Positions 8,947 through 62,350 of a DNA stretch of 64,000 nucleotides are shown here, one piece after another. This stretch comes from a virus. A program made the position numbers and the translations under genes. The notes beneath the pieces are model-generated. The model had not been told where the DNA came from. It saw nothing but the letters and a program-made list of their open reading frames with translations, and searched no databases. The stretch is from positions 1 through 64,000 of IMG/VR virus record IMGVR_UViG_3300045988_149268. The stretch is one strand, 5' to 3'. Each line of letters begins with the position of its first letter. Positions within the stretch are counted from its first letter, which is position 1.

Positions 8947-8947
8947 G

Positions 8948-23884: not shown

Positions 23885-23915
23885 ATATGTAGAAAATAAA
23901 GAAAGGTGTTGGAGT

Positions 23916-33598: not shown

Positions 33599-33609
33599 AA
33601 GAGGTGCCT

Positions 33610-35953: not shown

Positions 35954-35971
35954 TAAAATTTTTGATATAAT
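35943..35971 (+). promoter_or_regulatory. Sigma-A type promoter TTGACA-N17-TATAAT
   Basis: Consensus hexamers. Confidence 0.6.
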
Positions 35972-36004
35972 ATATGTATAAGGTAAGGAAAAGGAGTAAA
36001 TCGA

Positions 36005-36376: not shown

Positions 36377-36378
36377 TT

Positions 36379-38959: not shown

Positions 38960-38967
38960 GAGGCCAA

Positions 38968-40514: not shown

Positions 40515-40717
40515 TGGAGGGAATTTTTATGAATAACGTATATTACTCTAAGACAAATAAGGATAAGATTTGGGGTCGTGAATTGTCTTATACAATGACA
40601 AAAAGTGAATTTAAGGAAATTTGTGGCGATAACTTTAATCCGCAGAAAGTGATTGACTATATTAATGATACTTATGGTCTGCTTGGCACGGTGACGGAGC
40701 TGCATCTGGAGGGCTAA
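40514..40717 (+). CDS. Small hypothetical protein
   Basis: 67-aa ORF coupled to helicase stop. Confidence 0.4.
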   Translation: MEGIFMNNVYYSKTNKDKIWGRELSYTMTKSEFKEICGDNFNPQKVIDYINDTYGLLGTVTELHLEG

Positions 40718-40724
40718 TTTTTTA

Positions 40725-41831
40725 ATGCGATATTATGACAAGGACGAAATCAAAGAAAAATTAACGACTGATATGGTATTTGATATAGTTTATGAGTTTG
40801 GTGGTGAGCCAAGAATAACAAATTTTGGCTTTATCGCAGCGACTATTTGTCATAACATCGCAGGAGAAGGCTCTCATAAATTATATTATTACGAAAACAC
40901 AAAATTATTTAGATGCTATACTGGCTGTGATAGTACGTTTGATATTTTTGAACTAATTCAAAAAATAAAATTATTATCACAGCCTCAAAGTAATTGGGGT
41001 TTATATGATTCTGTTAGATGGGTGGCAGCGAGATATAATTGGGCGTCGTCAACAGAAAAAGAAGAAGCAGCCGATATTTTGCCAGATTGGGCTATTTTAG
41101 ATAAATATGAAAAATTATTGCAAGATAATATTACCACTGCACAAACAATTCAACTAAAAGAATATGATGATATTATTTTACAGCGACTTTCATATCCTCG
41201 TATTAGCTCTTGGTTAGCAGAAGGCATTAATCAAGAAATTTTAACAAAAAATAAGATTGGTTATTATCCAGGCGGAGAACAAATAACCATTCCGCACTAT
41301 GATGTTAATGGTCGTTTTATTGGTTTACGAGGTCGAACAATCTCAAAAGAAAATGCTGATTTATATGGAAAATATCGACCAGTTCTAATCGGCGGAGTTT
41401 TATATAATCATCCTCTTGGATTAAATCTATATAACTTAAATAATAGTAAAAACAATATCGCTTTGGCAAAAAAAGCTATTATATTTGAAGGTGAAAAAAG
41501 CTGTTTAAAATATGCGTCTTATTTTGGAATAGATAATGATATATCAGTTGCTTGTTGTGGTTCAGCTATTAGTTTTGTTCAAATTAAATTATTATTGGAG
41601 GCTGGCGCCACGGAAATTATTATAGGATTTGATAAGCAGTTTCAAGAAAAAGGCGATATTGAGTTTAAACATTTAATAAAAAATTTAAAAAATATTCATC
41701 GCAAATATAGTTCATATGCGACGATAAGTTTTTTATTTGATAAATGGAATTTACTTGGCTATAAAGACTCTCCTGTTGATAAAGGGCCAGAGATATTCCA
41801 GAAATTATATAAACAAAGAATCTTTTTATAA
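40725..41831 (+). CDS. DnaG-like TOPRIM DNA primase
   Basis: TOPRIM region IIFEGEKS...IIIGFDKQ; position between helicase and nuclease genes. Confidence 0.55.
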   Translation: MRYYDKDEIKEKLTTDMVFDIVYEFGGEPRITNFGFIAATICHNIAGEGSHKLYYYENTKLFRCYTGCDSTFDIFELIQKIKLLSQPQSNWGLYDSVRWVAARYNWASSTEKEEAADILPDWAILDKYEKLLQDNITTAQTIQLKEYDDIILQRLSYPRISSWLAEGINQEILTKNKIGYYPGGEQITIPHYDVNGRFIGLRGRTISKENADLYGKYRPVLIGGVLYNHPLGLNLYNLNNSKNNIALAKKAIIFEGEKSCLKYASYFGIDNDISVACCGSAISFVQIKLLLEAGATEIIIGFDKQFQEKGDIEFKHLIKNLKNIHRKYSSYATISFLFDKWNLLGYKDSPVDKGPEIFQKLYKQRIFL

Positions 41832-41843
41832 AGTAGGGATAAA

Positions 41844-43589
41844 ATGAATTATAAGGTATATACAAGAAATCAAGAATTTAATATATTAGAGCAGGTTTTA
41901 TATAACAGAGGAATTGTTGCTCCTCAACAGATGAGAGAATTTATCGCACCTGATGAAAAAGTCGTTCAAAGTGAATATGCTTTATCCAATATCGAGGAAG
42001 CAGCAAAAGAGTTATGTAGAAATTTAGCTCATCAAAATAAGATTTATATTCAGGTTGATAGCGACTGTGATGGGTATACATCATCTGCAGTTTTAATTAA
42101 TTATTTGCATCGTATTTTTCCAGCTACCGTTGAAAACAATATTATTTATAATGTACATGGAGATAAGCATCATGGAATAAATATTGATGCTATTCCTAAA
42201 GATGTTAAACTTGTTATAGCACCAGACTCATCTTCAAATGAAAATGATTTGCATAAGAAATTAGTCGAACGAGGAATACATATTATTGTTTTAGATCATC
42301 ACCAAGCAGTAGCGGATGAATCAGATCCAACAATTATTGTCAATAATCAGATGTGCAATTATCCGAATAAAGCGCTGTCTGGCGTCGGTATTGTGTATAA
42401 ATTTTGTAAGGTGCTTGACAATATTTTTCATGTTTCATATGCCGACGATTATCTTGATTTGGTGAGTTTAGGTATGACCGCGGATATGATGGATTTGCGC
42501 GAGCCAGAAACACATTATTATGTTATTAAAGGCGCAGAAAATATCAAAAACATTTTTTATAATAAAATGATTGAAAAGCAAGAATATTCGATGAAAGGTG
42601 CTGTAAATCCTTTTACAATTAGTTGGTATATCGCTCCATTAATTAACGCTGTTACTCGAAGTGGTACATTGGATGAAAAGAGACTGGTGTTTGAAGCCTT
42701 CCTTGATTATCAAGCGATTCAAGTAATTCCTTCTACAAAGCGTGGAGCAAAAGGTCAAGATGAATTAAAAGTTGAACAAGCATTGCGACTTGTAACGAAT
42801 ATTAAAAGCCGCCAAGAAAAAACAAAAAAAGACATTCTTGATAAAATTTTACCCACTATTGATGCAGAATCGACCGATCCAATTCTTGTAATTTTATTTC
42901 CCGAACCAATAGATGAAAATTTAAATGGTTTGCTTGCTAATCAGTTAATGGGAATGTTTCATAAACCAACTTTTGTTTTAAACGGATATTACGATGAAAC
43001 AAAGGATAATGATTTATATTTTAGAGGTTCGGCAAGAGGATTTGAATCAGCAAAAGTTCATGATTGGCGTAAATATGTTGAAGATAGCGGTTGCGCCGAA
43101 TATGCAGAAGGACATGAGTTTGCTTTTGGTGTATCTTTTGAAGCCGATTCTCTTGAATATTTTATCGAAAAGACAAAACAAGATTTAGGCACAGATAATC
43201 AATCATTTTATCAAGTTGATTTTTCATATTTAACTTCAGATAAATTTGATAAGGACATACTTGATTTAGGACATTTGCAAGGATTATGGGGACAAAATGT
43301 ACAAGAACCACTGGTTGTAATTGAAAAAGTAGCTTTAACTCAAAATGATATTCAGCTATTGGGAAAAGGTACATTAAAAATTACTATTCCCGGTCATAGC
43401 ACAAGCTGTATTAAATTTGGTGGAGAAGATGCTTATAATGATTTAATTAAGCATTTGCCAGAAGTGGATTCTCGTATTTATGTTTCTTTACTTGGAACGT
43501 GCGCGGTTAATGAATATTATGGCAATGAATATCCACAAATTAAATTGAAAGATTATGAAATTACTGGTATAATGGAATGGTACTTTTAA
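41844..43589 (+). CDS. RecJ-like DHH-family single-strand exonuclease
   Basis: DHH motifs DSDCDGYTS, DHH; 581 aa. Confidence 0.65.
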   Translation: MNYKVYTRNQEFNILEQVLYNRGIVAPQQMREFIAPDEKVVQSEYALSNIEEAAKELCRNLAHQNKIYIQVDSDCDGYTSSAVLINYLHRIFPATVENNIIYNVHGDKHHGINIDAIPKDVKLVIAPDSSSNENDLHKKLVERGIHIIVLDHHQAVADESDPTIIVNNQMCNYPNKALSGVGIVYKFCKVLDNIFHVSYADDYLDLVSLGMTADMMDLREPETHYYVIKGAENIKNIFYNKMIEKQEYSMKGAVNPFTISWYIAPLINAVTRSGTLDEKRLVFEAFLDYQAIQVIPSTKRGAKGQDELKVEQALRLVTNIKSRQEKTKKDILDKILPTIDAESTDPILVILFPEPIDENLNGLLANQLMGMFHKPTFVLNGYYDETKDNDLYFRGSARGFESAKVHDWRKYVEDSGCAEYAEGHEFAFGVSFEADSLEYFIEKTKQDLGTDNQSFYQVDFSYLTSDKFDKDILDLGHLQGLWGQNVQEPLVVIEKVALTQNDIQLLGKGTLKITIPGHSTSCIKFGGEDAYNDLIKHLPEVDSRIYVSLLGTCAVNEYYGNEYPQIKLKDYEITGIMEWYF

Positions 43590-43590
43590 T

Positions 43591-43619
43591 TGACATTTTT
43601 AATTAAATTTGATATAATA
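43591..43619 (+). promoter_or_regulatory. Sigma-A type promoter TTGACA-N17-TATAAT
   Basis: Consensus hexamers. Confidence 0.6.
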
Positions 43620-43642
43620 TAATTAGAAATGGAGGAGTTCAT

Positions 43643-44821
43643 ATGGAACTTACAGAAAAACAGAAACAAGGATTGGACATTGCAATTAAAAGATACCGTG
43701 CCGGTGAAGCATATACAGTTATTAGCGGTTATGCTGGAACTGGTAAAAGCACTCTTGTAAGAGTTATCGTTGGGTCACTTGGTCTTGCGCCAGGACAAGT
43801 GGCCTATATTGCATATACAGGAAAGGCTGCACAAGTTTTGCGTTCTAAAGGATGTTCAACAGCAAAAACAGCGCATAAACTATTATATAAATCAATTTTA
43901 AATGAAAAAACCGGAAAATTTTACAATATTCCTCGTGTTTATTTAGATGGCCCATACAAACTTATTGTTGTTGATGAAGTTTCTATGCTACCAAAAGAAT
44001 TATGGGATTTATTGCTTTCACATCATATTCATGTATTGGCACTCGGCGATCCCGGACAGTTGCCGCCAGTTAAAGCAGAAAGTAATGGAGTTTTAGATAA
44101 CCCACATATTTTCCTTGACGAAATTATGCGACAAGCAAAAGACAGTGAAATCATTCGTTTAACAATGAATATTCGTGCTGGAAAGCCTCTTGAATTATTT
44201 AGCGGACAAGACGTGCGAATTGTTGATCAAGATGAACTTAATAAGCCTGGTATTTGGAGATGGCCAGATCAAATTTTAGTCGCAAAAAATGCTACAAGAC
44301 ATTCTATTAATACTTTTATTCGTAAAGAGCTTTATAATAGAATAAATCCTTTTCCAGAAGAAGGAGATAAAATTATTTGTCTAAGAAATGATTGGAATAC
44401 AGCAAATGCAGCGGGAGATGCTTTAGTTAATGGTTTAACTGGCACTATTGAGAATATCAGAGAACAAGATCCAGTTAATCCTTTTGCCGAAGCTACTTTT
44501 AAAGCAGATTTTATGCCTGATTTTGAAGGTTCTGGAATTTTTACTGATTTAGAAATGGATGAATGTATTTTTACTACACATAAACAAAGTAAAAATAAAG
44601 TCCATCCAGATTGGTCTCTTCCTAAAGAATACGCACCAGAACAATTTGATTATGGATACGTGATTACAACTCATAAATCTCAAGGTAGCGAATATAATAA
44701 AGTATTAGTTCTTGAAGAATTTTTAAGAAGTCAAGGTTCTGAAGACCATATTCGTTGGCTATATACGGCCGCAACAAGAGCAAGTCAAAAATTAATTATT
44801 GTGAGGGACTATCGTTTATGA
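43643..44821 (+). CDS. SF1 Dda/RecD-like DNA helicase
   Basis: Walker A GYAGTGKST, DEVSM, GDPGQLPPV, C-terminal VITTHKSQGSEY. Confidence 0.7.
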   Translation: MELTEKQKQGLDIAIKRYRAGEAYTVISGYAGTGKSTLVRVIVGSLGLAPGQVAYIAYTGKAAQVLRSKGCSTAKTAHKLLYKSILNEKTGKFYNIPRVYLDGPYKLIVVDEVSMLPKELWDLLLSHHIHVLALGDPGQLPPVKAESNGVLDNPHIFLDEIMRQAKDSEIIRLTMNIRAGKPLELFSGQDVRIVDQDELNKPGIWRWPDQILVAKNATRHSINTFIRKELYNRINPFPEEGDKIICLRNDWNTANAAGDALVNGLTGTIENIREQDPVNPFAEATFKADFMPDFEGSGIFTDLEMDECIFTTHKQSKNKVHPDWSLPKEYAPEQFDYGYVITTHKSQGSEYNKVLVLEEFLRSQGSEDHIRWLYTAATRASQKLIIVRDYRL

Positions 44822-45306
44822 TTCATTTTGCAACGAGTTATTTTTATCAAATTAGATTTTTTCGACCAGATATGATTCCTCTAAGCACAGCAAAATTTGA
44901 TCCAAAATGGTTCCATCAGAATAAAGGGCATAATTTTACTTTTTTTGATAAAAATTATGTGCTTAATGGTTTACGATTTGAAGAATTTGCGCCTGGGCCA
45001 ATGTGTGAAGGATTATGTTGTGGGCCAGAAACTTGTTCTAAAAATGTAAATAATTGCGACTTTCTTAGTGCTTATCGTCGCCAGCTTGAAAAGGTTTCTT
45101 TTGAAAATTTAATTCATAGATGTGAAGATTGTTTGGCTTGGTATAAAATTAAACACAATATAGAATTTACAGAACCGACTTTCGTGATGATAGTTTATGA
45201 AACTCCGACAAATCCTTGTAGTGAGCGTTCAGCCATTCAAGACTGGTTTAAATTAAAAGGTATTGAATGTAAAGAGCTTTCTATTGACAAATCATTAAAA
45301 ATATGA
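44817..45306 (+). CDS. Hypothetical Cys-rich protein
   Basis: ATG overlapping helicase stop (ATGA); track ORF begins earlier at 44755. Confidence 0.45.
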
Positions 45307-45312
45307 TATAAT
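45284..45312 (+). promoter_or_regulatory. Sigma-A type promoter TTGACA-N17-TATAAT
   Basis: Consensus hexamers. Confidence 0.6.
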
Positions 45313-45355
45313 ATTATATAGAAAAGGAGCTCTTCAAGGAGGTGGAATTAAAGTA

Positions 45356-48300
45356 ATGGGATTTTTTAATGGACATAATCATACCCATTACTCTTAGGGT
45401 CTAACCTAAGAATTGTCGATTGTATTATTAAGCCAAAAGACCTAATTGATAGAGCGATTCAATTGGGTCTTTCTGGTATTGCTATCACTGATCATGAATG
45501 TTTAAGTGCGCATATGGAAATAAATTTATATGCACAAAAAATTCATGAACAATATCCAGATTTTACAATTGCTCTCGGTAATGAGATTTATTTAACTGAA
45601 ACAAGAGAAAAAGGACAGCCGTATTATCATTTTATTTTAATTGCAAAGGATGCTATTGGTCACAAAGCATTGCGTGAACTTAGTTCAACTGCTTGGTATA
45701 ATTCTTATTTTGACCGTGGCATGGAACGTGTGCCGACGCTTAAAAGTGAATTATCAAATATTATAAATAAATATAAGGGGCACCTAATAGCAACGACAGC
45801 CTGTATTGGTGGAGAATTGCCAAAATTATTGCTGGCTCGTAACAGTTTAAAGATGGCAAATTTGAACACAAATGAAGTAGATGAAAAAATTAATGATTTT
45901 ATTACATTTTGTATAAATACTTTTGGACAAGATAACTTTTTTATTGAATGTGCGCCATCTACTGCAAGTGATCAGATTCTTGTGAATAGACTTCTTGCTG
46001 CAATTAGTAAAGAATATAATCTTAAACTTGTTGTGGCAACAGATAGTCATTATCTTAGTAAAGAAACAAGATTCGCGCATAAGGCTTATTTGAATTCAAA
46101 AGATGGCGAACGTGAAGTTGACGCTTTCTATGAATTCGCCAGATTGATGGATGAAAAAGAAGTAAAGGAATTGCTTCATTACTCTTTTCCATATGAAGAA
46201 AAAATTGGTGATGCAAGATGCTACATTAAGAATCTAGAAAAAGATTTTGTTGATGTAATTTTAGAAAATACTGAATATGTTCGTCAGCAAATTACATATT
46301 ATTCATTGGCTCAAAATCAACATATTCCTACTGTTAATTTACCTGAATATCCTGCTTATATTCAAGCTGGTATTGAAAAGTATCCAACACTAACTAAACT
46401 ATTTAGCTCTTCTAATAATCAAGAGAGATATTGGGTGAATGAGTGCTGGAAAGCGCTTATTGAAAAAAAGTTAATAGATAATGATGAATATGTTGCGCGC
46501 CTTGAAACAGAAGCGGATGTAATTGATTTTATCGGTAATAAACTTGGGACTTGTCTGTTCGCATATTTCAATACTTTTAAACACTATATTGATTTGTTCT
46601 GGGAGTGCGGCAGTATCGTTGGCCCAGGTCGTGGTTCAGCCACCGGCTTTTTAAGCAATTATCTTTTGGGTATTACTCAGCTTGATCCAATTCGTTGGAA
46701 ACTCCCTTGGTTCAGATTTTTGAATAAAGAGCGTGCAGAATTGCCTGATATTGATATTGATTTGGCGCCCTCAAAAAGACCCGCAATTTTCAATGCGATT
46801 AGACAAGAGCGTGGAGAACTTGGCTTAGTTCAGGTCGTAACTTTTGGCACAGAAGGCACCAAAAGTGCAATTCAAACTGCTTGTCGTGGATATCGACATC
46901 AAGATGAGAATGGAATTGAACTATATCCAAATGGCATTGATGTTGACATTGCGTTGTATATTAGCTCTTTGATTCCTCAACAGCGTGGTTTTCTTTGGTC
47001 TATTCATGATGTTGTATATGGAAATGAAGAGCTTGGTCGAGCGCCAGTTAAAGAATTTATAAAAGAAGTTAATCAATATGATGGTCTTTTGAGTATTATC
47101 GAGAATATTGAAGGTCTTATTAAGCAACGTGGTATTCATGCTTCTGGTGTTATGTTATATGATGTAAATCATATTTATGATACTGCGGCGATTATGAAAG
47201 CACCTTCTGGAGATTTGGTAACAGCTTATGATCTTCATATGGCAGAAGCCGCCGGAGATACGAAATATGATTTTCTTGTAACAGAAGTTTCAGACAAAAT
47301 TATTGAAACATTAAAATTAATGGAAGATGATTCTGTTATTCCGACCGATTCTTTAAGAAATATCTATAACAAATATCTCCATCCAGAAATAATTGATACA
47401 GATACGTCAGATATTTGGCAAGCTCTTGCGAATGGTTCTGTTTTGGACGTTTTTCAATTCGGCACTGGTGTTGGATTAGCAATGGCTAAAAAACTTCAGC
47501 CTAAAAATCCTATTGAAATGACTGCGGCGAACGCTATGATTCGTTTGATGTCTGAGCCAGGAGTAGAAAGTCAGCAAGATAGATACTATCGTATTAAAAA
47601 TGGTGGTATTAAAATTTTTGATGATGAAATGCGCCAACATAAGTTGCCTGAACATATGATTCAAGCTCTTCATAAATATTGTGATGAATATTATGGATGC
47701 GTTCCGATTCAAGAGCAAATGATGATGATTCTTATGGATAAAAATATTTCTTCATTTACTCTTGCCGAAGCAAATGATGCACGTAAAATCGTTGCTAAAA
47801 AACAAATGAAACGGATTCCAGAATTAAGAGAGCATTTCTACAGAACGATGGAAAAAGAATATGCTGATTATGTTTGGGAATTAGCAATCGCACCACAATT
47901 GGGTTATGCTTTTAGTTTGAACCATTCACTTCCATATTCTTTTGTTGGTATTCAGACTCTTATCTTAGGCACACGATTTAATCCAGTGTATTGGAATACC
48001 GCTTGTCTTATTGTAAATAGTGGTGCGACAGATCCAGAAATGGATGGAACTACAAATTATGGTAAAATAGCAAAAGCAATTGGTGACATTACAAGCCGAG
48101 GGATTATAATTAAACCAGTTGATATTAATATTTCTGAATATGGGTTTAAACCTAAAGCAGATTCTGGTGAAATTTTCTTCGGACTAAAAGGACTTTTGAA
48201 TGTCGGCGATGATGTAATTGATATGATTTGTAAAAATCGTCCATATGTCAATTTTGCAGATTTTTTGCTAAAAGTGCCAGCAAATAAACAAGCGATTATT

Positions 48301-49269
48301 TCATTGATTAAAAGTGGAGCTTTTGATACTTTTGATGAGCGTAAAAAAATTATGGCTCAATATATTTGGAAAACTTGTGACAAAAAAGTTCGTTTGAATC
48401 TGCAAAATATGTCAACTCTTTTAAAACGTAATCTTATTCCTGATACTCTAAAAAAAGAGCGTTCTGTTTTTGAATTTAATAGATATTTAAAAGATATTTG
48501 CGGTAAAACAGATACGTTAGAGTTTTGTCTTGATGAACGAGCTATGCGTTTTCTTGAAGCTAATTTTTGTGATGCACCGATTAATATGCACGATAATTGT
48601 TACTGGCTGAATAAAAAGGCATGGGATAAGGTTTATCAAAAGGTTATGGACAAGATTCGTGATTATATTAAAGAAAATCAACAAGAAATGCTCTATCAGC
48701 TAAATAAAATGATTTTTGCCGATGATTGGCAAAAATATGCCAAAGGAACATATTCAGCTTGGGAAATGGAAGTAATGTGTTATTATTATCATGACCATGA
48801 GCTTAAAAATGTGAATAAAATTCGTTATGGATTAAGTGATTTCAATAAACTTCCAGAAGAGCCTATTGTTGATACTGTTATTCATAGAAAAGGTGTAATT
48901 ATTCCAATTTATAAATTAACTCATATTTGTGGTACTGTTATTGCAAAGAATAAAACAAAAGGCGATATTAGTCTTTTAACCACTGATGGAGTTGTTCATG
49001 TTTGGTTTAGAAAAGAATATTTCGCTTTATTCGATAAGCAAATTTCTGCTCGTGGTGAAGATGGAGCAAAACACGTTATTGAAAAAAGCTGGTTCAATAG
49101 AGGTAATATGTTAATTATAACTGGTATGCGTCGTGGTGATGATTTTATTCCAAAGAAGTATGCTTCAACGCAGGGACATCAATTATATCGTATTACTGAA
49201 ATCAAAGATGATGGAAGTTTGACTTTACAGTATGAACGAGCAAAGGGCGAACAAGAAGATGACGAATGA
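45356..49269 (+). CDS. DNA polymerase III alpha-like replicative polymerase (PHP + pol core); N-terminal 13 codons in a different frame, -1 shift needed at an in-frame TAG (45395-45397)
   Basis: ATG 45356 after caaggaggtgg RBS encodes MGFFNGHNHTHYS (PHP HxH motif) then TAG; -1 frame continues LGSNLRIVDCIIKPKDLIDRAIQLGLSGIAITDH = rest of PHP motif I/II and the 1268-aa track ORF. Confidence 0.6.
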
Positions 49270-50109: not shown

Positions 50110-51855
50110 ATGACTACGGTGTTGAAAAGAAACGGCGATTATGTACCATTTGATAAAAATAAAATTATTTCTGCAATTAGTAAAGCATTTTTAGATGTTG
50201 ATGGTTGTTTGTATGAAACAGATACAATTACTGATATTGCCGTAGATATTGAAAGATATTGTTCAGATAAAGATATTATTTCAATTGAATAGATTCAAGA
50301 TAAAGTAGAAGAATATCTAATGCGCTCAGAAAGACCTGATGTTGCTCGTGCTTATATTCGTTATCGCTATAAAAGACAAATTGCCAGATCGGCGAGCGAT
50401 ACTTTTATGAAAGCAATAGGAGAAAAGCTCAATGGCGCGAATATTGAGAATCAAAATGCCAATGTTGATGAACATTCTTTTGGTGGTCGCAAAGGCGAGG
50501 CCGATAGTATTTTAATGAAGAAATATGCACTTGACAATATTGTGTCAGATATGGCTCGTCGCAATCATGAAAATAATAGAATTTATATCCATGATTTAAG
50601 TGATTATGCAGTTGGCTCACATAATTGTCTATCTATTCCTTTTGATCATTTGCTGGCGGATGGATTTAATACAAGACAAACTGATATTCGTCCTGCCAAT
50701 AGTATTAATACTGCTTTTCAGCTTTTAGCTGTAATTTTTCAACTTCAATCACTTCAACAATTTGGTGGAGTAAGTGCGACGCATCTTGATTGGACGATGG
50801 TTCCTTATGTAAGAAAAAGTTTTAGAAAACATTATATTGATGGTTTAAAATATATTGAAAATATAAATGACGAAGAATTATTTCAACATATTCCAATGAC
50901 CGCTGGAATTCAAGATGGAGAATATAAAATTTATAAAAGTGCATATGATTACTCAATGGAAATGACAGAACGTGAACTTCAACAAGCTGTTGAAGGTATG
51001 TACCATAATCTTAATACTTTACAATCACGTTCTGGTAATCAATTACCTTTTACTTCTATTAATTATGGCACTTGCACTTTACCAGAAGGTAGAATGGTTA
51101 TCAAGGCTTTGCTCGAAGGCTCATTAAAAGGCATTGGTAAGCATCATAGAACACCAATTTTCCCTTGCGGTATCTTCCAAATTGGAGAAGGAATTAATAA
51201 ACGACCTGGTGATCCAAATTATGATTTATTTAGACTTGCTTTAAAATCAACCGCAAAAAGATTATATCCAAATTATGCTAATATTGACTGGTCTGGTAAT
51301 ATTGGATATGATCCCAGCCGACCCGATACTTATTTCAGCACGATGGGGTGCCGCACGGCAAATGGTTGGGATATAAATGGTCTTGGCCAGCAGAAAGATG
51401 GCCGTGGTAATATTTGTCCAGTGACGATCATTCTTCCTACTCTCGCCATGGAAGCAAAAGAAGGAATTGACTTCTTATTTCCTGTTGACGAAACTCCTGG
51501 CTATATTGATACTTTTATGAAAATTTTAAATAAAGCTATTGATGATGCTAAAGATATGTTGTTAGAACGTTTTAATTATATTTGTTCTCAAAATCCAGAA
51601 TCTGCAAGATTTATGTATGAAAATGGATTAATGGCTGGTTATATCCCAGAAGAAGGCATCATTAGCGCTTTAAAACACGGCACATTAGCGATCGGGCAAT
51701 TGGGACTAGCTGAAGCACTTCAAATTCTAATTAATTGTAATCAAACAACAGAAGAAGGAATGATTTTAGCTAAAAGAATTGAGTCTCTATTTAAAACAAA
51801 AGCAAGTGAATTTAAAGAACAGTATAAATTAAATTTTGGTGTATATTATACGCCT
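50110..51855 (+). CDS. nrdD: Anaerobic ribonucleoside-triphosphate reductase NrdD, exon 1 (1 in-frame TAG)
   Basis: ATP-cone VLKRNGDYVPFDKNKI, class III RNR core; track ORFs 50110-50292 and 50320-51891 share the frame; exon ends ..GVYYTP. Confidence 0.75.
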
Positions 51856-52818
51856 AAGATTGAATTGGGCGTCGTACAAGTAATTGTATGAAAAAATAAC
51901 CTTGTTAAACGGGCAATCGTAATAAGATGGTAAGAAAGCCTAAACCCTCATGGGCATGGTAATCCCGTAGGATAAAATCTATTGGACAGAAGTGAAAATT
52001 TGTGTTTCATAAAAATTTATGTTATAATAGAACAAGAAAGTGAGGTTTTATTATGGCACGAAGAAAAATGACAGAGAGATTAATTAATCGCAACGATATA
52101 AAAGAAGAGATGCGATTAATTAAAGGAAGTAACACAGATTATATCACTCCAACCGGAAATATATATAAAGATTATGGCAATAATATGTTTTATCATAAAT
52201 CTGTTTTTCCTAATAAAAATAATGGATATTTGTATTGTGGAATTACTTATATTAATGGATAGCGACAACGAAGAGTGCATATCTTAGTTGCAGAAGCATA
52301 TTTGCCAAATCCAGATAATTTACCTATTGTATTGCACTTAGATAATGATAAAAAAAATTGTAATATAAATAATTTAAAATGGGGAACCGTAAAAGAAAAT
52401 ACTTAGCAAGCATTCAATGATAACCTACAAATTAATGATAAGAGTTGGAAAGACTCTCAGTCTATTCATGTGTGTAGTTTTGATTTACAAGGAAATTTGT
52501 TAAATAAGCATGGGTCTATCGGAGAAGCATCTCGAATGTTGCAAGTAACAAAAACAACTATTTTAAATTAGTGTAATCATAATTTAAAGACTAAACCAAG
52601 ATGCGGTTACTATTTTAGGTATTTATCTGAATATGAGTCCAAGGGTTTTGTTCTCTAACGACTATCGAAAATATAGTTATAGAGAAATACTATAATGAAT
52701 AAATGAGTAGAGTAGGCAATAGCCGAAAGACAAGGCTCTTATTATTTGGTAACAGAATAATAAGATGATAATATAGTCTAACCCTCTTAAAAATATCGGG
52801 AAACCGAAGGTAGAAGTG
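51856..52818 (+). mobile_element. Group I intron in nrdD carrying HNH homing endonuclease
   Basis: Upstream frame ends ..NFGVYYTP then stop after 12 codons; downstream exon resumes AENLCYTS.. giving conserved TPAENLC junction; exon1 ends with T, intron ends with G; internal promoter-like aaaaatttatgttataat. Confidence 0.65.
52053..52658 (+). CDS. HNH homing endonuclease (intron-encoded; 3 in-frame TAG)
   Basis: HLDNDKKNCNINNLKWGTVKEN HNH motif; frame open through TAGs to TAA ~52656. Confidence 0.6.
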
Positions 52819-53301
52819 GCTGAAAATCTTTGCTATACGTCAATGAAGAAATTTAAAGATAAATATGGGATTATTCCAAAAGTTTCTGATAAAGAGTATT
52901 TTACAAATAGCATTCACGTTCCAGTTTGGGAAAAAGTTGATATGTTAAAGAAAATTGACATAGAAGCTCAATTAACTGGATATAGCTCCGCTGGATGTAT
53001 TACTTATGTTGAATTGGACGCAGGTATGGAAAATAATTTGGATGCTATGGAAGAAATTGTTATATATGCTATGAATAAAGATATTCCTTACTTTGCCATT
53101 AATGTGCCGAATGATACTTGCCTTGATTGTGGCTATACTGGAGAATTTAACAATCATTGTCCAGAATGTGGCAGTCCGCATATTCAGCAATTAAGACGTG
53201 TAACTGGTTATTTAACTGGTAACTATAAAACTGCTTTTAATAAAGGCAAAATTCAAGAAACAGATATGCGAGTTAAACATACAGGATTAATGGAGGATTA
53301 A
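52819..53301 (+). CDS. nrdD: NrdD exon 2 (glycyl-radical and Zn-ribbon C-terminal domain)
   Basis: CLDCGYTGEF..CPECGS zinc ribbon and glycyl radical motif RRVTGYL. Confidence 0.75.
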   Translation, partial: AENLCYTSMKKFKDKYGIIPKVSDKEYFTNSIHVPVWEKVDMLKKIDIEAQLTGYSSAGCITYVELDAGMENNLDAMEEIVIYAMNKDIPYFAINVPNDTCLDCGYTGEFNNHCPECGSPHIQQLRRVTGYLTGNYKTAFNKGKIQETDMRVKHTGLMED

Positions 53302-54826: not shown

Positions 54827-55428
54827 AAATTGAAGCAGGTTTTGAAAGAATTACAAAATATCAAGAGGATAATGATGTAAAAATCCCTAATCGCAAGACC
54901 GCAGCGTCTGCAGGTTATGATTTTTATGCCGCGGAAGATACTATCGTTCCAGCTTATGATATTATGTTGTCTGATTTTCAAAATAGTCTTATTCAAGAAG
55001 AAATTTCAGACAAGGAACGCTTTAAGACAATTGAAGACGTAGATAAGGCATTTAATCCGATCTCTCTTGCGGATTTTGCCACTTTAACAAAAAAGTATAA
55101 ATTTAAACCAACTCTTGTTCCTACTGGTATTAAATGTAAAATGCCAGAAGATATCTATCTACAGTTAAGTGTGCGCAGCTCTTTGCCACTAAAGGATTGG
55201 CTTGTTTTAGCAAATGGTGTTGGTATTATTGATGCCGATTACTATAACAATCCAGACAATGAAGGACATATTTATTTTCAACTAATCAACTTTTCTCCAT
55301 TTCCGATTTTGATTAAAAAGGGAGATTGCTTTGGATAGGGCATTCTTCTTCCATATAATACTTGTGCTAACGAAGACAAAGTGACAGCAACTCGCGAAGG
55401 TGGCTTTGGTTCTACAAGTGGCAAGTAA
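54823..55428 (+). CDS. dut: dUTP diphosphatase (1 in-frame TAG near C-terminus)
   Basis: dUTPase motifs RKTAASAGYDFYA, RSSL, GVGIIDADY, C-terminal RGGFGSTG-like (TREGGFGSTSGK). Confidence 0.7.
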
Positions 55429-55935
55429 AAGAAAAATTTTAGCCTTAGATCAGAGCACGCGTGTGTCTGGCTGGGCTATTTTTTATGGAGATTAGTTAGA
55501 AAGTTTTGGACATTGGACGCATACCGCAGAAGATATTTCTATACGTATCCATGGTCTTTGTTAGGAAATTCAAGAGAAAATAGAAGCAGAAGATATAGAC
55601 TTCGTAGTGATTGAAAATATTCAGCTGGAAATGAAAAATAAGGATAAACCATTATTAAACGTTGCGACTTTTTAGAAATTAGCTTGGGTTCAAGGTGCAA
55701 TTATGGAACTATGTAATGAAATGAGTATTCCATTCACTCTTGTTTATCCAAATGAATGGCGCAAAGCATGTAATTTTTTAAAGGGGCAAAGTCCAAATCG
55801 TGATGCTTAGAAAAAAATTGCTCAATAGTGGGTGTTAAATACATATAATAAAAAATGCACACAAGATGAATCTGATGCAATTTGTATTGGCTGGGGTTAT
55901 ATACATTTAGAACCAGAAGAAATTGTTTTTGATTA
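55418..55935 (+). CDS. RuvC-like Holliday junction resolvase (5 in-frame TAG; GTG start)
   Basis: N-terminal KILALDQSTRVSGWAIF matches RuvC ILGIDPGSRVTGYAV; acidic catalytic residues later (DESDAICIG). Confidence 0.5.
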
Positions 55936-55999
55936 ATGGGCTGTTCTCAATAATCCTTCTTTCATAGAATTGAAATAATTTGTGAAGGGAGGAATTTTT

Positions 56000-57487: not shown

Positions 57488-58177
57488 TTAGACTCCGCAT
57501 CCACAATAATTATTCGTCGCCGCATATGGTGAAGAAGTTACATAGGCTGGACGTGGAACAGGCTGTAAAGCACCCAAGATATTTTGCGTTTGTAAGTTGT
57601 TAGACAATGCAGAGCGGGTAGTAGAAAGTTCATCTCTAAGAGTCTGAATTTGATTCTGCATCATAGCGTCTAAAATGCGTTGTGTATTTTCATTCTAAGC
57701 AGTAATAATATCGCAAGTATTTTTTGCATTTTCATAGCGCACTGCATCAATATTGCGGTTAGTGGTGCAGCAGCACTCTTGCTGAGCGAAACGATTTTCA
57801 TTCAGCTGTGTGCCAAGACCATAGAAACCATTGGTCATGGCCGATTGTAGATTAGTAAGATTCTGTAAATTATCATATTTCACAGAACCCCAGTTGTTTG
57901 CCGCATCGCGCTCAAAAGCACGAAGTTCAGAAGCGATTTCGCTCTGATTGCGGAAAACATCTTGCTGGCCGAGTCCTTGATATAATTCGGCTCTTGTCAA
58001 CGCTCCTTCCACAGCGTTGTTGTTGCCACCAAAGAATCCGCCACCGCCCCAGGCGAGTAAGAAGAACAAGAAGAAAACCCAAATCCAGGTTCCTCCTGCT
58101 CCACCAAAACCATTATTATTGCCATTTGTCATTGCCATTGCGTCTGCTAAGCTAAATCCGCCGTTTTCAAGTGCCAT
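57488..58177 (-). CDS. Glycine-rich membrane protein (1 in-frame TAG)
   Basis: GG-rich segments flanking TM WIWVFFLFFLLAW; frame continues through TAG to TAA at 57488. Confidence 0.45.
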
Positions 58178-58209: not shown

Positions 58210-58401
58210 TTATTTATTAAACATGGATTGAAACTGCTTAAATTGTTGAAGCATTTGATTCATGTCTAAACCTTTTTCTTTGCAGATATTTAGTGCTATT
58301 TGTTGTAATTCTTCAGGTGTTTTGCCTTCCGCCATTTGCTGGGCCCTTGCGAATAGTGGATTATTAGAAAATAGGCTTAGTGGGTTGTTGTTGTTTGTCA
58401 T
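58210..58401 (-). CDS. Small hypothetical protein
   Basis: RBS aaggaggaggaactgcaaatg. Confidence 0.5.
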   Translation of the reverse strand: MTNNNNPLSLFSNNPLFARAQQMAEGKTPEELQQIALNICKEKGLDMNQMLQQFKQFQSMFNK

Positions 58402-58489
58402 TTGCAGTTCCTCCTCCTTGTTTAATCTAAGTTAATTGAGCACTAAGGTCATTAATCGCCTAATTAAATTCTTCTTTACTCACAAAATC

Positions 58490-58768
58490 CTAAGTGCTCG
58501 TCGGTTGAGGTGTTGATGGTAAGTCTGTTAATTCATACATTCTAAAAACTGCCTGACCATTTAGCCCGATTTGTTTTGTATAAATTCGATTATTTGAAAC
58601 ATCAGGAAAATAGAATGTCGTACCATCAAAATCAATTGGTATTGCGCGTACCTCATCAAGTGAAGCAACGGGACGACCGCGTAACAAATTTTGCTACGTC
58701 GCCATCTGCGATTCCAAATAATTTAACCGTTGCTATTGTTGAGGATACATTCCGTAATTTGGAATCAT
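58490..58768 (-). CDS. Small hypothetical protein (2 in-frame TAG)
   Basis: Start MIPNYGMYPQQ-Q-.. after RBS aaaggagagacaaat; extends track ORF 58490-58687 upstream through TAGs. Confidence 0.45.
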
Positions 58769-58863: not shown

Positions 58864-59265
58864 TCATTTAGCCGGGGTCTTATTTTCTTTTACTTGAGCC
58901 TCTATTAAATTCATAATATAACTCTGTAAATCACCAGTTGCGTTTGATAAATAATCTTTTGCATCTTCAGATAAAATTGCCATAATAGCGCTATATGTCT
59001 TTTGAAGTGCTTCTTTTTGAGCTTCTTCAGTAAAGGCGTTTTTGTCTTTTAGCGCATCAACATAAGTTTGATTTGTCGCAATAACACAATTTGTAACCGT
59101 CTTATTCAACATATCAAAATACTTCTTAAAAATTTCATTATCTGTCTTTTCTTTAAGTTCTTCATTTTTAACAGCAAAAAATTGAACCATATACTTTGTA
59201 ATAAGCCCCAATAGAGGAATAATTACAACCACAAAAAGATTTTGTAAAATTTCAGTCCAGTCCAT
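58864..59265 (-). CDS. Holin, phiLC3/Phage_holin_1-like
   Basis: 133 aa, single N-terminal TM VVVIIPLLGLITKYMV, long charged C-terminus; immediately upstream (in transcript order downstream) of lysin; RBS aagggagtatgattt. Confidence 0.55.
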   Translation of the reverse strand: MDWTEILQNLFVVVIIPLLGLITKYMVQFFAVKNEELKEKTDNEIFKKYFDMLNKTVTNCVIATNQTYVDALKDKNAFTEEAQKEALQKTYSAIMAILSEDAKDYLSNATGDLQSYIMNLIEAQVKENKTPAK

Positions 59266-59278: not shown

Positions 59279-60232
59279 TTATTTATAAAAAATAAAATAT
59301 TGTTTTGCTTGTGATCTTAGGTTAGATTTTTTTGATTTTGCGCGGGCCGCAGAACTTCCACCTGGGTCACAAATATAAACATAGGTATCGTCAACTTTCC
59401 ACCAACAGATGTAATGACCATGCTTTGTCCATACTCCTGGACCAACAGAACAAACAACATAGGCGCCATTTTTAATAGCCTTCTCCGCTGTTGCATATGA
59501 GCTTGTCTAAACAAAATTTGATGCTTTATATTTTTTAGCAACATATTTAAAGAAGCTCCAAGAAGTGCCATTGTTTTCTGTGCGGAATCCAGCATCAACT
59601 GCTAAAGCACACATTTCAACTGGTGTTATTTTTTTATCCCACCATGTAGCTACAATATCCGCCATTGCAGTTGGGCCACAACCAGAATTACCAATATTTT
59701 GTGTTTTATTATATGTATTATTTTTTGTGAAAACAACTTTTTTCCATTTAGAATCATATTGTTTGTAATTTACTGGCTGTTTAGTATTTGTGCCTCCACT
59801 GCTAACTGAATTAGAGCTATTGCTAGCAGAAGCTGTTCCAGATAAACCAAACAATGCCGCCCACGTTTTTTGTCCTATGATTCCGTCAGCAACAAGATTT
59901 GCGGTTGTCTAAAAGGTTTTGACATGAGCTTTTTCGTCAACTTTAAATATACCATCTTGAGCCATAGTCTATAGTAAACATTCTAAAACATTAACCCATT
60001 TACCAGAGGAACCAACTTTAAGTGTAGGGGCATCTTTTACAATTGCAGCATAAGTATTTTTTCCAACAATACCATCCGCTATTAATTCTTTACTTTTTTG
60101 ATATGCTCGAATAGCTTGCTCAGTATTTTTACCAAAAATACCATCAGCATCAATTTCTAAAATATATTGTAGAGCTTTGACATATTCATTTTTTGAGCCT
60201 TTTTTAAGAGTTACCATGTGGATTATCCTCAC
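59279..60232 (-). CDS. Peptidoglycan hydrolase: 2x PG_binding_1 repeats + Ser-rich linker + C39-like cysteine peptidase (3 in-frame TAG)
   Basis: PG-binding repeats ADGIFGKNTEQAIRAYQ / ADGIVGKNTYAAI / ADGIIGQKTWAAL; C-terminal GNSGCGPTAMADI (Peptidase_C39_2-like Cys) and GHYICWW His; track ORFs 59969-60232 and 59507-59854 are one frame; 59317-59598 is spurious. Confidence 0.6.
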
Positions 60233-60652
60233 TTTCTGTTAAAATAAATTCTTCAGAAGTCCAAAATACTTCTGGCTCTTTTTTAACGAGCAAATTATGA
60301 ATCCAATCCATTATCTTCTTCAACATCGTCATAATCCTCCTATATTTCGCCATTAAGCACTTTTTCTAAAATTAAACGACGAGTTTCAAGTTTAATTTTA
60401 TTTTCAGTTTTTGCTTTATAAGAATAAAAACCTGAAATTACAGATGCTTCAACAAAGACTGATGGAATTAAATACTCTAATGGCGATAAATCATTAGTCA
60501 TAACCATTAAAATAATTGTAAAAATTACAACCAAAATAGTTATAGCCATAATTACAATACACAGTAATTTACTAAAAGAAGTGCCGCGACTGCTATCTGC
60601 GCGCATTGCATCTTGAATATATGGATATGCCAATCGCGGCAAGTCTTCTTCA

Positions 60653-62350
60653 TTATACTGTTGCTGCTCCGAGAGCCTTCCACGTCGCTTTACCAACGAT
60701 ACCATCTACTTTCAAATTTTTATCTTTCTAAAAATTTCTTACAGCTTGTTGGGTCTTAGAACCAAAATTACCATCAATTCCAGTTTTACCAACATCGTAG
60801 CCAAGAGCAACAAGAATGGTCTATAATTCTTTTACATAATCATTAATCATTCTTTTTTTAAGCATTGGATAATTTGTAAAATCTTTTCCTTCCGCTGGTT
60901 TTGTTTCTTCTGGCTTATCTTTTCCTTGCGCCGCAATTAAAGCTGCAAAAGTTTTCTTACCAGCTAAGCCATCTACTTTTAAATCATTATCTTTCTAAAA
61001 AAGTTTTACTGCATTGATGGTTTCATCCTAATAATATCCATCTGTTGGAGCTTTATAATCTAACTCGCACAATAATTCTTGTAGTTCTTTAACATCAGTC
61101 CCAGAATAACCTTTTCTTAAAGTTCGAGATCCAAATTTATATTCTTTCAATGAATCATTAGAATCAGTATCTGGTTTTTGCACAGAACCTGAAACATATT
61201 CTACACCTGGAAACTCATACCAGTCAGTCCAAGGTCTATCTTTCAATTTGGTAATAATAATTCCTTTTGCAAAGCCATAGGCTTCAACAACTTCTCCATT
61301 GCCAATATAATATCCAACATGTCCATCTTTACGAACAGCAAGGCCAGGAATTTCAGGAATTGTATTAATTGGACCGTAATTTTTCTTTTTACTTTTAGCA
61401 TATGTAAACATTCCATTTGCACTTCTGTCAGGACATCCGTTGGAACCATATTTACTAACAATTTTTTTACCAGTTCCAATAGCTTCAATAACACCAACGC
61501 CACCGTTTGTCCAAACAAAACCTTTGCCCAGCCCAACGCAATCAGCACATACACATTTATTCGCTATTGCTTTATTATACTTCGCCATACGGCTTGAAGT
61601 GTAATGGCTTGGATATTGTCTAGATTTAGATTTTAATACAGAAGCTGTGCAATTATATACACAAGTTCCATACCAATATGGCTGTCCAACCATCTACTTT
61701 AAAAAATTAACAAAATCAATATTCGTAAGTCCCATAGTTTTCTTTCCTCCATTAAGAGTCGAGGTGTTCTCACCATAGTTGTTACGGATGTCAGTACCTG
61801 GATAATAAAAATTTAAAATCTCAATATAAGTTTTACCAATAGACGCAGCGTATTTGGCGCCAGCTTGGCTCATACCAACTCCGTGGCCGTTCTTTTTGCC
61901 TTGGGAAGCGGCCCGGTCCCATGGGTCATCGCGCGCAATTAAGTATGGTCTATCCCCTCCCCATACTTCTTTTGATGAATACGTGCGACCGCCATTTGTT
62001 GCAGCATAATTAGCATTTGTGATTAAAGAATTTTTATAAAATAGAACTTGCCCTTCTGTATCAGAAACAGCTTGATGTGCTTTGTCATAAGCGGCAGAAA
62101 AACGTGAAGCTCTAAATGCCTAATCTATACTACTTTTATCTGTAATATAGCCTTGTCTTTTATACTTATTTAAAGCAAAAGTTCTAGCAGCTATTGCTTG
62201 CGCTTTCCCAGCTTCTAAGGGCGCATTACCAATTTCTGATGGAACAACTCCTTTTAAATATTCTTCAATATCAATTTCAATTAGATTTTTATGATAATAA
62301 TTAATATTTTCTGAACGACTTAATTTTACTTTAATTATCATAACAATCAA
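60653..62350 (-). CDS. Multidomain cell-wall hydrolase: SpoIID/LytB-like domain + NlpC/P60 peptidase + 2x PG_binding_1 (4 in-frame TAG)
   Basis: SpoIID-like AQAIAARTFAL..NGGRTYSSKEVWGG..GHGVGMSQAGA; NlpC/P60 Cys ADCVGLGKGFVW and His GHVGYYIG; C-terminal PG_binding_1 repeats where TAG sits at conserved Gln (F-Q-KD..L.VDG); track ORFs 62120-62350 and 61028-61693 share frame; 60340-60705 spurious. Confidence 0.6.

Follow-up and report, generated by a model that had tools for sequence, protein, structure and literature searches.

TAG is read as glutamine in the lysis cassette and other genes of a 64-kb window from a large tailed phage

In this work, we focus on a stretch of 64,000 nucleotides, hereafter the window, which corresponds to positions 1 to 64,000 of the IMG/VR virus record IMGVR_UViG_3300045988_149268, and particularly on its region 59279-62350, in which two endolysin genes are interrupted by in-frame TAG codons. 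The phage of origin is large and tailed, and the guanine and cytosine (GC) content of the window is 34%. Contigs related to the window measure 160-176 kb, and dozens of them were found among the protein-search matches, which makes this lineage a common one in public metagenomes; near-identical contigs occur, for example, in ENA ERZ27237426, ERZ27295819 and ERZ1024477. Because the two endolysin genes adjoin a holin gene, the region and the adjoining holin form a lysis cassette (Table 1). A preliminary description, made from the letters of the window alone, proposed that TAG is here a sense codon for glutamine (Gln, Q), and we consider this proposal in the light of protein domains, of the DNA of related phages and of the tRNAs that they carry.

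The Pfam search of the two lysins was run with every TAG masked as X. Under these conditions, the PG_binding_1 family (PF01471) scores 65.7 bits in lysin 1 and 100.2 bits in lysin 2, above the gathering cut-off of 23 bits, and its matches extend over in-frame TAGs. The SpoIID match of lysin 2 (residues 21-102) likewise crosses the first TAG of that gene, and the Peptidase_C39_2 match of lysin 1 (residues 170-285) crosses the third, while the middle part of lysin 2 is without Pfam assignment but is common to its IMG/VR homologues. The standard code, for its part, splits lysin 2 into pieces of 76, 141, 221, 10, 57, 30 and 24 amino acids, and lysin 1 into pieces of 87, 19, 133 and 75. To assign the TAGs to columns of PG_binding_1, the four repeats of the window were aligned with three solved PG_binding_1 domains, and the HMMER alignments to chains of the PDB were inspected. 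The TAGs of KTF-TAG, KLF-TAG and RNF-TAG align with the FQ column, and that of KEL-TAG with the LQ column. Five TAGs had been cited as sitting on conserved Gln positions of these repeats, and this stands for those four; the fifth, ECLL-TAG, lies on a variable column (N/T/C/V), 4 residues beyond the LQ column, the LQ position of that repeat being occupied by Glu. Overall, 4 of the 6 repeat TAGs sit on the eight conserved-Gln slots (hypergeometric P = 6e-6), so that TAG columns do not fall at random in these alignments. In the PDB alignments, Q faces three of the TAGs of lysin 2, and the TAG-bearing repeat of lysin 1 was placed by the repeat alignment alone.

The same columns can be followed in the DNA of other phages. 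All of 22 IMG/VR homologues of lysin 2 that use the standard code and carry no in-frame TAG have CAG or CAA at the KLF-TAG column, and the column of the first TAG of lysin 2 is Q in 106 of the 106 aligned sequences among 120 homologues, some of these Q being TAG as translated by the gene caller. Closer to the window, we used eight related loci (L023 and L025-L031; 62-97% amino acid identity), which, apart from small gaps, cover approximately window positions 11-14700 and 17500-64000. Of the 6 TAG columns of lysin 2, five have CAA or CAG in relatives, and the remaining one (residue 441) has AAA or GGC. All three TAG columns of lysin 1 are CAA or CAG in L028, one of them being CAG in L026 too. 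A Gln codon is thus found in at least one relative at 8 of the 9 TAG columns of the lysins, the exception being residue 441 of lysin 2. Elsewhere in the cassette, the TAG column of the small membrane protein is TAG in L026 and TAT in L028, and 2 of the 5 TAG columns of the Gln-rich protein are CAA in L027, the remaining ones being TAG in both L026 and L027.

This pattern extends across the window. We counted 80 in-frame TAGs in 26 genes, close to the roughly 75 in about 25 genes announced at the outset, once spurious ORFs (open reading frames) had been dropped from the set after comparison with the relatives (36316-37308 and 28388-28675, both on the minus strand, 36084-36275, 32224-32484 and 32674-32826). 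The ORF statistics come from a greedy non-overlapping ORF cover. With the standard code, the coding density is 0.819, with 101 ORFs and a median length of 108 amino acids; reading TAG as sense gives a density of 0.926, with 86 ORFs and a median of 178 amino acids, and the control that reads TGA as sense gives 0.846, with 103 ORFs and a median of 108. The prediction that translation table 15 would raise coding density, and that the standard code fragments about 25 genes, is therefore borne out by a rise that is specific to TAG. Reading frames are interrupted by TAG only, and by neither TGA nor TAA. Genes had been said to end with TAA or TGA only, and indeed the ORFs called with table 15 end with TAA in 54 cases and with TGA in 28, no gene requiring a TAG terminator. 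The TAG at 35951 was considered as a true stop followed by a backup TAA (35951-35956), and it was rejected as such, the corresponding sequence being CAA-TAA in L029 and AAA-TAA in L030; further TAGs close to C-termini either precede conserved sequence or have a sense codon in relatives. Pfam or PHROG matches cross TAGs not only in SpoIID, PG_binding_1 and Peptidase_C39_2, but also in GT2 (family-2 glycosyltransferase), both GIY-YIG proteins, RNase H, AAA_24, DUF5662 and RuvC.

If TAG were an ordinary stop, it would delimit separate small genes, pseudogenes in an element under decay, or artefacts of sequencing or assembly. The standard code does give these fragments as ORFs, and the public annotation of some short related contigs shows such a fragmentation, as with the RNase H called as 70 amino acids in L031. 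Against this, the TAG positions are kept, or replaced by CAA or CAG, in independent assemblies of different samples (L023 and L025-L031), domains are cut mid-fold, and the interruptions are TAG and never TGA or TAA. A start codon with a Shine-Dalgarno-like motif within 15 codons after the TAG was found for only 2 of the 65 TAGs of multi-TAG genes, so that 63 of them are without a nearby restart signal and the fragments do not appear as separate genes. Finally, lysin 2 is 95% identical to its counterpart in L026 across its full length, which indicates that purifying selection persists past the TAGs. We consider the ordinary stop as very improbable, and TAG as read as sense.

To establish which amino acid is inserted, the comparison with the relatives was made codon by codon on their DNA, and not on database proteins, because Q in the closest database homologues is TAG as translated by the gene caller. 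For the same reason, the Q of database proteins P0001 and P0002 (GT2) and of P0009, P0011 and P0013 (lysin 2) was rejected as evidence for Gln, the corresponding contigs being untranslatable under table 11. Aligned to at least one relative were 77 TAG columns of the window, in which the relatives have TAG in 95 observations, CAA in 27, CAG in 13, AAA in 7 and GAA in 5, followed by scattered singles. After two spurious ORFs were dropped, there remained 49 informative columns with 71 observations, and Q is found in 40 of these observations and in 31 of these columns, the others being mainly K (8), E (5), I (4) and Y (3). A log-likelihood based on BLOSUM62 gives -155.0 for Q, -196.4 for E, -203.9 for K and -226.0 for S, with Tyr below all of these, that is a lead of Gln of 41 nats over Glu and 71 over Ser; as a control, 9 of 10 codons were correctly assigned to their amino acid by this procedure. 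In the first five loci, CAA (17) and CAG (11) stand opposite the TAGs of the window, and in the reverse direction the TAGs of the relatives face CAA (13) and CAG (11) in the window, any other codon being found at most 3 times. In the exchange profile, the share going to Q is 56% for TAG, which lies between CAA (38%) and CAG (67%), and TAG and CAA or CAG interchange freely among close relatives.

The insertion of another amino acid has to be weighed here, Ser being the foremost candidate, along with Tyr, Lys and Glu. Tyr, Lys and Glu codons are one base change away from TAG, and a few TAG columns are K, E, Y or I in relatives. The suppressor tRNA(CUA) found in L023 and L025 measures 89-91 nucleotides, has G73 and bears a long variable region, and long-arm suppressor tRNAs insert Ser in Escherichia coli (PMC5389517). 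The likelihood, however, places Glu, Lys, Ser and Tyr all well behind Gln; CAA, which faces the TAGs of the window more often than CAG, is two substitutions away from TAG; and TAG occupies the conserved FQ, LQ and SpoIID Q columns. The tRNA itself has a 7/5 architecture (acceptor and T stems) with A1·C72, G2-C71 and G3-C70, and an amber tRNA-Ser has been switched to Gln through pairs 1-72 and 3-70 (PMC9976931). Another amino acid is thus improbable, and Ser insertion in particular is excluded as far as the comparative sequence data go (-226 against -155). Given the likelihood lead, the predominance of Q and controls that work, we conclude, as had been proposed, that this phage uses translation table 15, in which TAG codes for glutamine, with TAA and TGA as terminators. 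In practice, table 15 is needed for gene calling in this phage and its relatives, as the standard code breaks about a quarter of the genes, both endolysins included. The public gene calls of the group are inconsistent: long contigs were called with TAG as Gln, and both L031, a short contig that is the 97% relative, and the GenBank record of phage Phass-1 (OQ749652.1) show fragmented small ORFs.

Table 1. Features of the window, with coordinates given on the window and in-frame TAGs given by number or position.
Feature	Coordinates	Strand	Length	Content and basis	In-frame TAGs
Endolysin 2	60653-62341	minus	562 aa	SpoIID, NlpC/P60-like middle, 2 PG_binding_1 repeats; translation and Pfam	6: 62120, 61694, 61028, 60995, 60821, 60728 (first base, low coordinate)
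Small membrane protein between the lysins	60295-60705	minus	136 aa	transmembrane-like; phrog_17876 (function unknown)	60340
Endolysin 1	59279-60217	minus	312 aa	2 PG_binding_1 repeats and Peptidase_C39_2; translation and Pfam	3: 59969, 59909, 59507 (first base, low coordinate)
Holin	58864-59265	minus	133 aa	phrog_13712 at E = 4.7e-31; directly downstream of endolysin 1	0
Gln-rich lysis-cassette protein, function unknown	58364-58768	minus	134 aa		58733, 58694, 58490, 58460, 58427
phrog_16490 protein, function unknown	57488-58177	minus	229 aa		57695
RuvC-like Holliday junction resolvase	55400-55936	plus	178 aa	phrog_159, residues 10-169, crosses all five TAGs	5
HNH endonuclease ORF	52053-52658	plus	201 aa	HNH_3 Pfam match; inserted between nrdD parts	3
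Replisome block	38949-49269	plus		DnaB-like helicase, primase, RecJ-like exonuclease, Dda-like helicase, PolIII-alpha-type polymerase; PHROG matches	0
Second GIY-YIG protein	33604-34593	plus	329 aa	Pfam match	8, including YVG-TAG-A at 34372
RNase H	27840-28343	plus	167 aa		28050
GIY-YIG homing-endonuclease-type ORF	25589-26299	plus	236 aa	between two GyrB-like gene pieces	5
Cys-rich protein, function unknown	16168-17028	plus	286 aa		6
tRNA-Val(UAC)	5324-5399			separate from the array	
Protein, function unknown	3700-4791	plus	363 aa		5
Tandem family-2 glycosyltransferase (GT2)	1166-3379	plus	737 aa	Glycos_transf_2 at E = 3.6e-30 across TAGs	13
tRNA-Thr(CGU)	39-114	plus		tail end of tRNA array (12-114)	
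tRNA-Ser(UGA), 3' fragment	about 12-37	plus		tail of tRNA array	

Suppressor tRNA(CUA) genes are common in phages that use code 15, although not universal, and the tail of a tRNA array is found at the very start of the window, in which the one other tRNA gene is tRNA-Val(UAC). The two nearest relatives over this part, L023 (a contig of 162,590 bp) and L025 (a contig of 71 kb), are 86-92% identical in nucleotides to window positions 11-14134, and in both of them an array of 18-23 tRNAs ends with the tRNA-Thr gene. Each of these arrays contains a tRNA(CUA) of 89-91 nucleotides, located 2.5-3.7 kb upstream of the point that matches the window start (L023:6295-6385 and L025:5219-5307) and scoring 60.7 bits (L023) and 53.9 bits (L025) with the Rfam tRNA model. 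Its cloverleaf has 7/5 acceptor and T stems with covariation support, and not the 8/4 or 9/3 of allo-tRNAs. In both relatives, the acceptor end is A1·C72, G2-C71, G3-C70 and G73, like that of the phage's own tRNA-Gln(UUG), and G10-C25 is invariant in 18 of 18 members of the tRNA(CUA) family. The elements of Gln identity include base pairs 1-72 and 3-70, the 10-25 pair and U35, and a long-armed amber tRNA-Ser acquired Gln identity when the first two were changed (reviewed in PMC9976931). Checked by sequence, the tRNA(CUA) matches the set recognised by glutaminyl-tRNA synthetase (GlnRS) at a weak 1-72 pair, G73, G2-C71, G3-C70, 10-25 and U35. It fails at G36, as the CUA of the decoding hairpin gives A36; a CUG or UUG triplet is found in the loop of a second hairpin, to which we return below.

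The TAGs are unevenly distributed among the genes, as measured by the share TAG/(TAG+CAA+CAG) per gene class and by Fisher P values against the core of the replisome. This core, made of the replisome block together with GyrA, GyrB, the ligase and the YorF-like protein (5058 codons), contains 0 TAG out of 162 and serves as the reference. The share rises to 7/216 in other enzymes (P = 0.022) and 16/88 in the lysis cassette (P = 2e-8), and it is highest in homing-endonuclease ORFs (18/51, 35%; P = 5e-13), in the GT2 and its neighbour (18/52, 35%; P = 6e-13) and in the RuvC-like protein with two unknowns (14/38, 37%; P = 8e-12). Borges et al. (bioRxiv 10.1101/2021.08.26.457843) described the same bias, including recoded endonucleases inside early genes, and interpreted it as a lock that keeps late and lytic functions closed before the suppressor is in place. 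The recoding pattern is also that of Babkin et al. (PMC10607447).

A similar mechanism can be proposed for this phage. It would supply its own amber-suppressor tRNA(CUA) from a tRNA array that is located upstream of the window start in the nearest relatives. The early genes (helicases, primase, polymerase, gyrase and ligase), being free of TAG, would be translatable by the unmodified host machinery. As the suppressor tRNA builds up, the TAG-containing genes would in turn become translatable, namely those for the endolysins, the other lysis-cassette proteins, the homing endonucleases, the glycosyltransferase and the RuvC-like resolvase, and recoding would thus act both as a timer and as a safety catch on lysis. 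The order of events in time, the origin of the tRNA in this particular genome and the enzyme that charges it are inferred, and we consider this mechanism as the most likely one. To the explanation as a whole (TAG as Gln, a suppressor tRNA of the phage's own, TAG-free early genes and a lysis timer), we give a probability of roughly 0.92. The window would then add a Bacillota-type, SPbeta- and Phass-like lineage to the phages that hold lysis genes behind a reassigned stop codon, which is a confirmation rather than a surprise.

Several points weigh against this explanation. The evidence base is sequence, and the 71 observations that designate Gln are not independent, the relatives being kin of one another. 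The sixth TAG of the PG_binding_1 repeats, GYY-TAG (residue 441 of lysin 2), lies on a conserved Gly column. The suppressor tRNA that the preliminary description invited one to look for is present in the nearest relatives L023 and L025, but there is no tRNA(CUA) within the 64-kb window, and neither release factor 2 (RF2) nor GlnRS was found among the approximately 60 window proteins scanned. The window moreover diverges from its relatives at bases 1-10, inside the tRNA-Ser(UGA) gene, of which only the 3' part is present; this corresponds either to a rearrangement or to a contig end. An exact look-up of the proteins at the two edges of the window, made in order to extend it, found no record of them. 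The tRNA(CUA) of the relatives also bears a long variable arm, which in other systems is a mark of Ser identity (PMC5389517). Finally, one TAG is found in each of NrdD, NrdG, dUTPase, RNase H and AAA_24, and five in the RuvC-like protein, and there is none in the holin. The separation of early and late genes by TAG is a tendency, not a rule, because enzymes foreign to lysis carry TAG and the holin carries none.

These last exceptions also nourish another view of the bias, in which TAG is still Gln but its distribution has no timing role and reflects drift in recent, fast-evolving or mobile genes under permanent suppression. This alternative is live because the holin, the classical lysis timer, is without TAG and several metabolic enzymes have a single one. 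The highest TAG shares are also those of mobile or accessory genes (homing endonucleases, GT2, RuvC and unknowns), and the free exchange of TAG with CAA and CAG between close relatives is in line with drift. On the other hand, the absence of TAG from 162 Gln-type codons of the replisome core is hard to reach by drift alone, and independent recoded lineages show the same combination of standard-code replication and recoded lysis genes (bioRxiv 10.1101/2021.08.26.457843). We hold drift in accessory genes as possible rather than likely, and a role of TAG in the timing of lysis as the preferred reading.

The long tRNA(CUA) of the relatives belongs to a larger group, which we looked for outside the window. 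An amber scan of IMG/VR selected sequences with a CUA anticodon loop upstream of the common T-loop, which were then submitted to ARAGORN; this selection is based on a pattern, and the counts of this and the following paragraph hold among the matches listed. Long suppressor tRNAs were found in the IMG/VR loci L032-L246 and L369-L488, besides L023 and L025. ARAGORN recognised at least 185 tRNA(CUA), of which at least 78 are long, with at least 55 unique long sequences. The extra region of these long amber tRNAs contains CUGA in 40 of 55 and UUGA in 8 of 55, as compared with 19 and 26, respectively, out of 198 long Ser, Leu and Tyr tRNAs from the same loci. Centred on the motif, 45 of 46 can be drawn as a 7-nucleotide loop closed by at least 2 in-register pairs. 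The consensus of this second loop (Y32 in 41/46, U33 in 36/46, C/U34, U35, G36, A37) is that of a tRNA-Gln anticodon loop, and loops identical to it exist in ordinary tRNA-Gln of the same loci (CUCUGAA, CUUUGAA and CUCUGAC). The helix of 3 base pairs that closes the second hairpin is paired in 87.5% of cells, a share that none of 500 shuffles attained (50.6% paired), slid controls giving 24-51%, and changes on both sides are found in 32 cells against 12.1 in shuffles. At position 1, 68 of 78 long CUA tRNAs and 43 of 46 tRNA-Gln have U or A, compared with 208 of 945 other tRNAs. Loci with a long tRNA(CUA) gain 0.16 in coding density when TAG is read as sense, the TGA control gaining 0.05 and standard-code loci 0.00.

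An analogous scan for opal suppressors gave at least 26 unique long tRNA(UCA), with acceptor stems like those of tRNA-Trp. Their second loop is CUCCAAA or GUCCAAA, and the authentic tRNA-Trp genes of these loci have CUCCAAA in 40 of 47. UCCAA is found in the extra region of 25 of 26 opal tRNAs, 0 of 55 amber ones and 2 of 271 other long tRNAs, while [C/U]UGA is found in 0 of 26 opal and 48 of 55 amber tRNAs, and CUGA by itself in 0 of 26, 40 of 55 and 21 of 271 opal, amber and other long tRNAs, respectively. The two classes share no common motif: the stems covary and the loops are fixed, with the format Y-U-CUG/UUG-A-R in amber and C/G-U-CCA-A-A in opal second loops. The layout comprises the D arm, A26, a first hairpin with the stop triplet, a linker, a second hairpin with the sense triplet, 3-7 nucleotides and the T arm; in the opal class, the 3-4 nucleotides that follow the second hairpin resemble a normal short variable loop. 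The minimum-energy fold of one opal example is a five-armed cloverleaf, and the single-sequence folding energies of the tRNAs are no better than those of shuffles. TGA recoding near opal tRNAs, judged by coding density, shows a weak difference (+0.086 vs +0.063). A scan of genome contigs, mostly noise, gave 4 relevant tRNAs, located in tRNA arrays, two of the contigs being titled as Bacillota-type bins of metagenome-assembled genomes.

Very tentatively, these sequences suggest that the amber suppressor of the lineage belongs to a class of two-headed phage suppressor tRNAs, whose second hairpin would be an anticodon-identity signal for the synthetase. We conjecture that this hairpin would present the anticodon signal to GlnRS (or to glutamyl-tRNA synthetase with GatCAB) in the amber class and to tryptophanyl-tRNA synthetase in the opal class, the first hairpin decoding the stop, and there might be a switch in which of the two takes the anticodon position. 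A full-text literature search, whose coverage excludes subscription journals, found no description of a two-headed class of suppressor tRNAs. This lead bears on the correct charging of CUA or UCA tRNAs in a recoding phage, the synthetases concerned being ones that read the anticodon. If it is true, the retention of a cognate anticodon loop makes the question of charging directly testable, and it could aid the engineering of efficient suppressor tRNAs.

Two further genes deserve mention with regard to tRNAs. A tRNA-like gene with an ochre-reading UUA loop (UUUUAAA) is kept in both L023 (6409-6484) and L025 (5821-5898) although TAA is the main terminator; it is AT-rich and weak, with 2 acceptor-stem mismatches, no encoded CCA and Rfam scores of 39.5 and 34.3 bits (threshold 29). 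A YqeY-like protein (18412-18852; PF09424, E = 9e-12), of a family akin to the tRNA-binding tail of GatB, is encoded beside a serine hydroxymethyltransferase gene and has a counterpart in L031; any link with the charging of the Gln suppressor would be pure speculation.

The genes outside the lysis cassette repeat what was observed in the lysins. The GT2 has full-length homologues (P0001-P0006), and four of its TAG columns are CAA or CAG in L023 and L025. The claim that the GIY-YIG motif contains a TAG twice holds: in the first protein, the Pfam match (residues 2-85) crosses three TAGs and the column of YIG-TAG-S, at 25643, is CAA in L030 and AAA in L025, and in the second, whose match also crosses TAGs, 6 of the 8 columns are CAA in L030 or L031. 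The claims about RNase H and GT2 hold as well, the RNase H match (residues 7-147) crossing its TAG at a column that is CAA in L030. ClpP does contain the TAGs that had been reported, but they are N-terminal to the Pfam match and thus uninformative on the amino acid. In the RuvC-like resolvase, two TAG columns are CAA or CAG in relatives and two others are AAA, GAA or GCG; its matches in the PDB, to HIV protease only, were non-significant and were discarded. The HNH match (residues 74-117) sits between two TAGs and crosses none. The protein encoded at 3700-4791 has no match in Pfam or PHROG, and the Cys-rich protein has no Pfam match, no related locus covering its TAGs.

Endonuclease ORFs with TAGs interrupt three genes of replication or of nucleotide metabolism in the window: nrdD (50110-53301), by an HNH ORF, a GyrB-like gene (23856-26860), by a GIY-YIG ORF, and a GyrA-like gene (28340-31627), by a LAGLIDADG ORF. 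In some relatives these genes are uninterrupted or contain a different endonuclease, and NrdD is a single uninterrupted gene of 730 amino acids in L028. A search for group I introns at these insertions gave no Rfam match, even at E = 0.1, and the insertions may be introns, inteins or free-standing. As for codon usage, the SPFH/flotillin-like gene (21447-22901) contains 25 CAG and 6 CAA, the window overall having 506 CAA and 197 CAG, and the genes 10844-12340 and 4846-5094 use CAG as their sole CAA/CAG-type codon; these CAG-rich genes may have been recently acquired. A promoter-like motif is also found at 35940-36000, composed of TTGACAAT, a spacer, TGATATAATATA and then AAGGAG, and it is repeated at several sites in L023, L025 and L028-L031.

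It remains to place this phage among known systems. Its replication module is like those of SPbeta and Phass-1, and the gene calls of its relatives include YorF- and YorH-type genes. The best matches of the DNA polymerase among phage records are Phass-1 (39% amino acid identity), tied with Enterococcus EF1-like and SPbeta-like phages, and a search of IMG/VR gave no close relatives of this polymerase. Phass-1 (Babkin et al. 2023, PMC10607447; OQ749652.1) is a phage with TAG reassigned to Gln and with suppressor tRNAs, for which the genus Phassvirus was proposed, with three species that are 80-86% identical to one another in nucleotides; NCBI places it under 'Caudoviricetes code 15 clade'. It resembles the window lineage in this reassignment, in its large tRNA array, in its Bacillota-type gene content and in the lack of a phage-encoded synthetase. 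It differs by its tRNA-Sup-CTA, which is an ordinary tRNA of 77 nucleotides, whereas that of the window relatives has 89-91 nucleotides and two anticodon-like hairpins; as a carrier of the long suppressor, Phass-1 was rejected, the short tRNA having been recovered in a search that covered its genome outside bases 50-86 kb. Membership of the window in Phassvirus was rejected as well, given the distance of the polymerase and the megablast of window positions 40000-62000 against phage records, in which the sole match was the nrdD segment of Thomasclavelia phages and Phass-1 was unmatched.

The phages known to use code 15 include crAss-like and Lak phages and the Jade, Sapphire and Agate clades (bioRxiv 10.1101/2021.08.26.457843; Peters et al., PMC9523058), and the reading of TAG as Gln was proved by proteomics in other phages (PMC9523058). 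The window shares with them this reading, recoded lysis and intron or homing endonuclease genes, standard-code replication and a low GC content, and the phage-borne suppressor tRNA that they carry is present in its relatives L023 and L025. Unlike in these phages, the holin is not recoded here, and the window yielded neither RF2 nor an aminoacyl-tRNA synthetase. The Agate clade has genomes of 154 ± 27 kb (bioRxiv 10.1101/2021.08.26.457843), to which the 160-176 kb of the window relatives fit, this comparison being limited to size and gene-class bias; there is no terminase gene in the window.

The suppressor tRNA, for its part, can be compared with two kinds of known suppressors. In E. coli supE and in the amber tRNA-Ser-to-Gln switch (PMC9976931), a CUA tRNA is charged with Gln through the acceptor stem, the 10-25 pair and U35, and GlnRS tolerates a long variable arm. 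These are host or laboratory suppressors of modest efficiency, while up to 13 TAGs per gene in the window demand an efficient decoding, and they lack the extra hairpin with a CUG or UUG loop that is found in the tRNA(CUA) of the relatives. Allo-tRNAs and tRNA-Sec-like suppressors (Mukai et al., PMC5389517) also combine a long variable arm with stop anticodons and occur in metagenomes and phages, but allo-tRNAs are 8/4 or 9/3 and have Ser or Ala identity, whereas the tRNAs considered here are 7/5, with acceptor stems of the Gln type, or of the Trp type in the opal class. The recoding of TAG to Gln is already known in gut phages, and what is possibly new in this lineage is the odd suppressor tRNA of its relatives.

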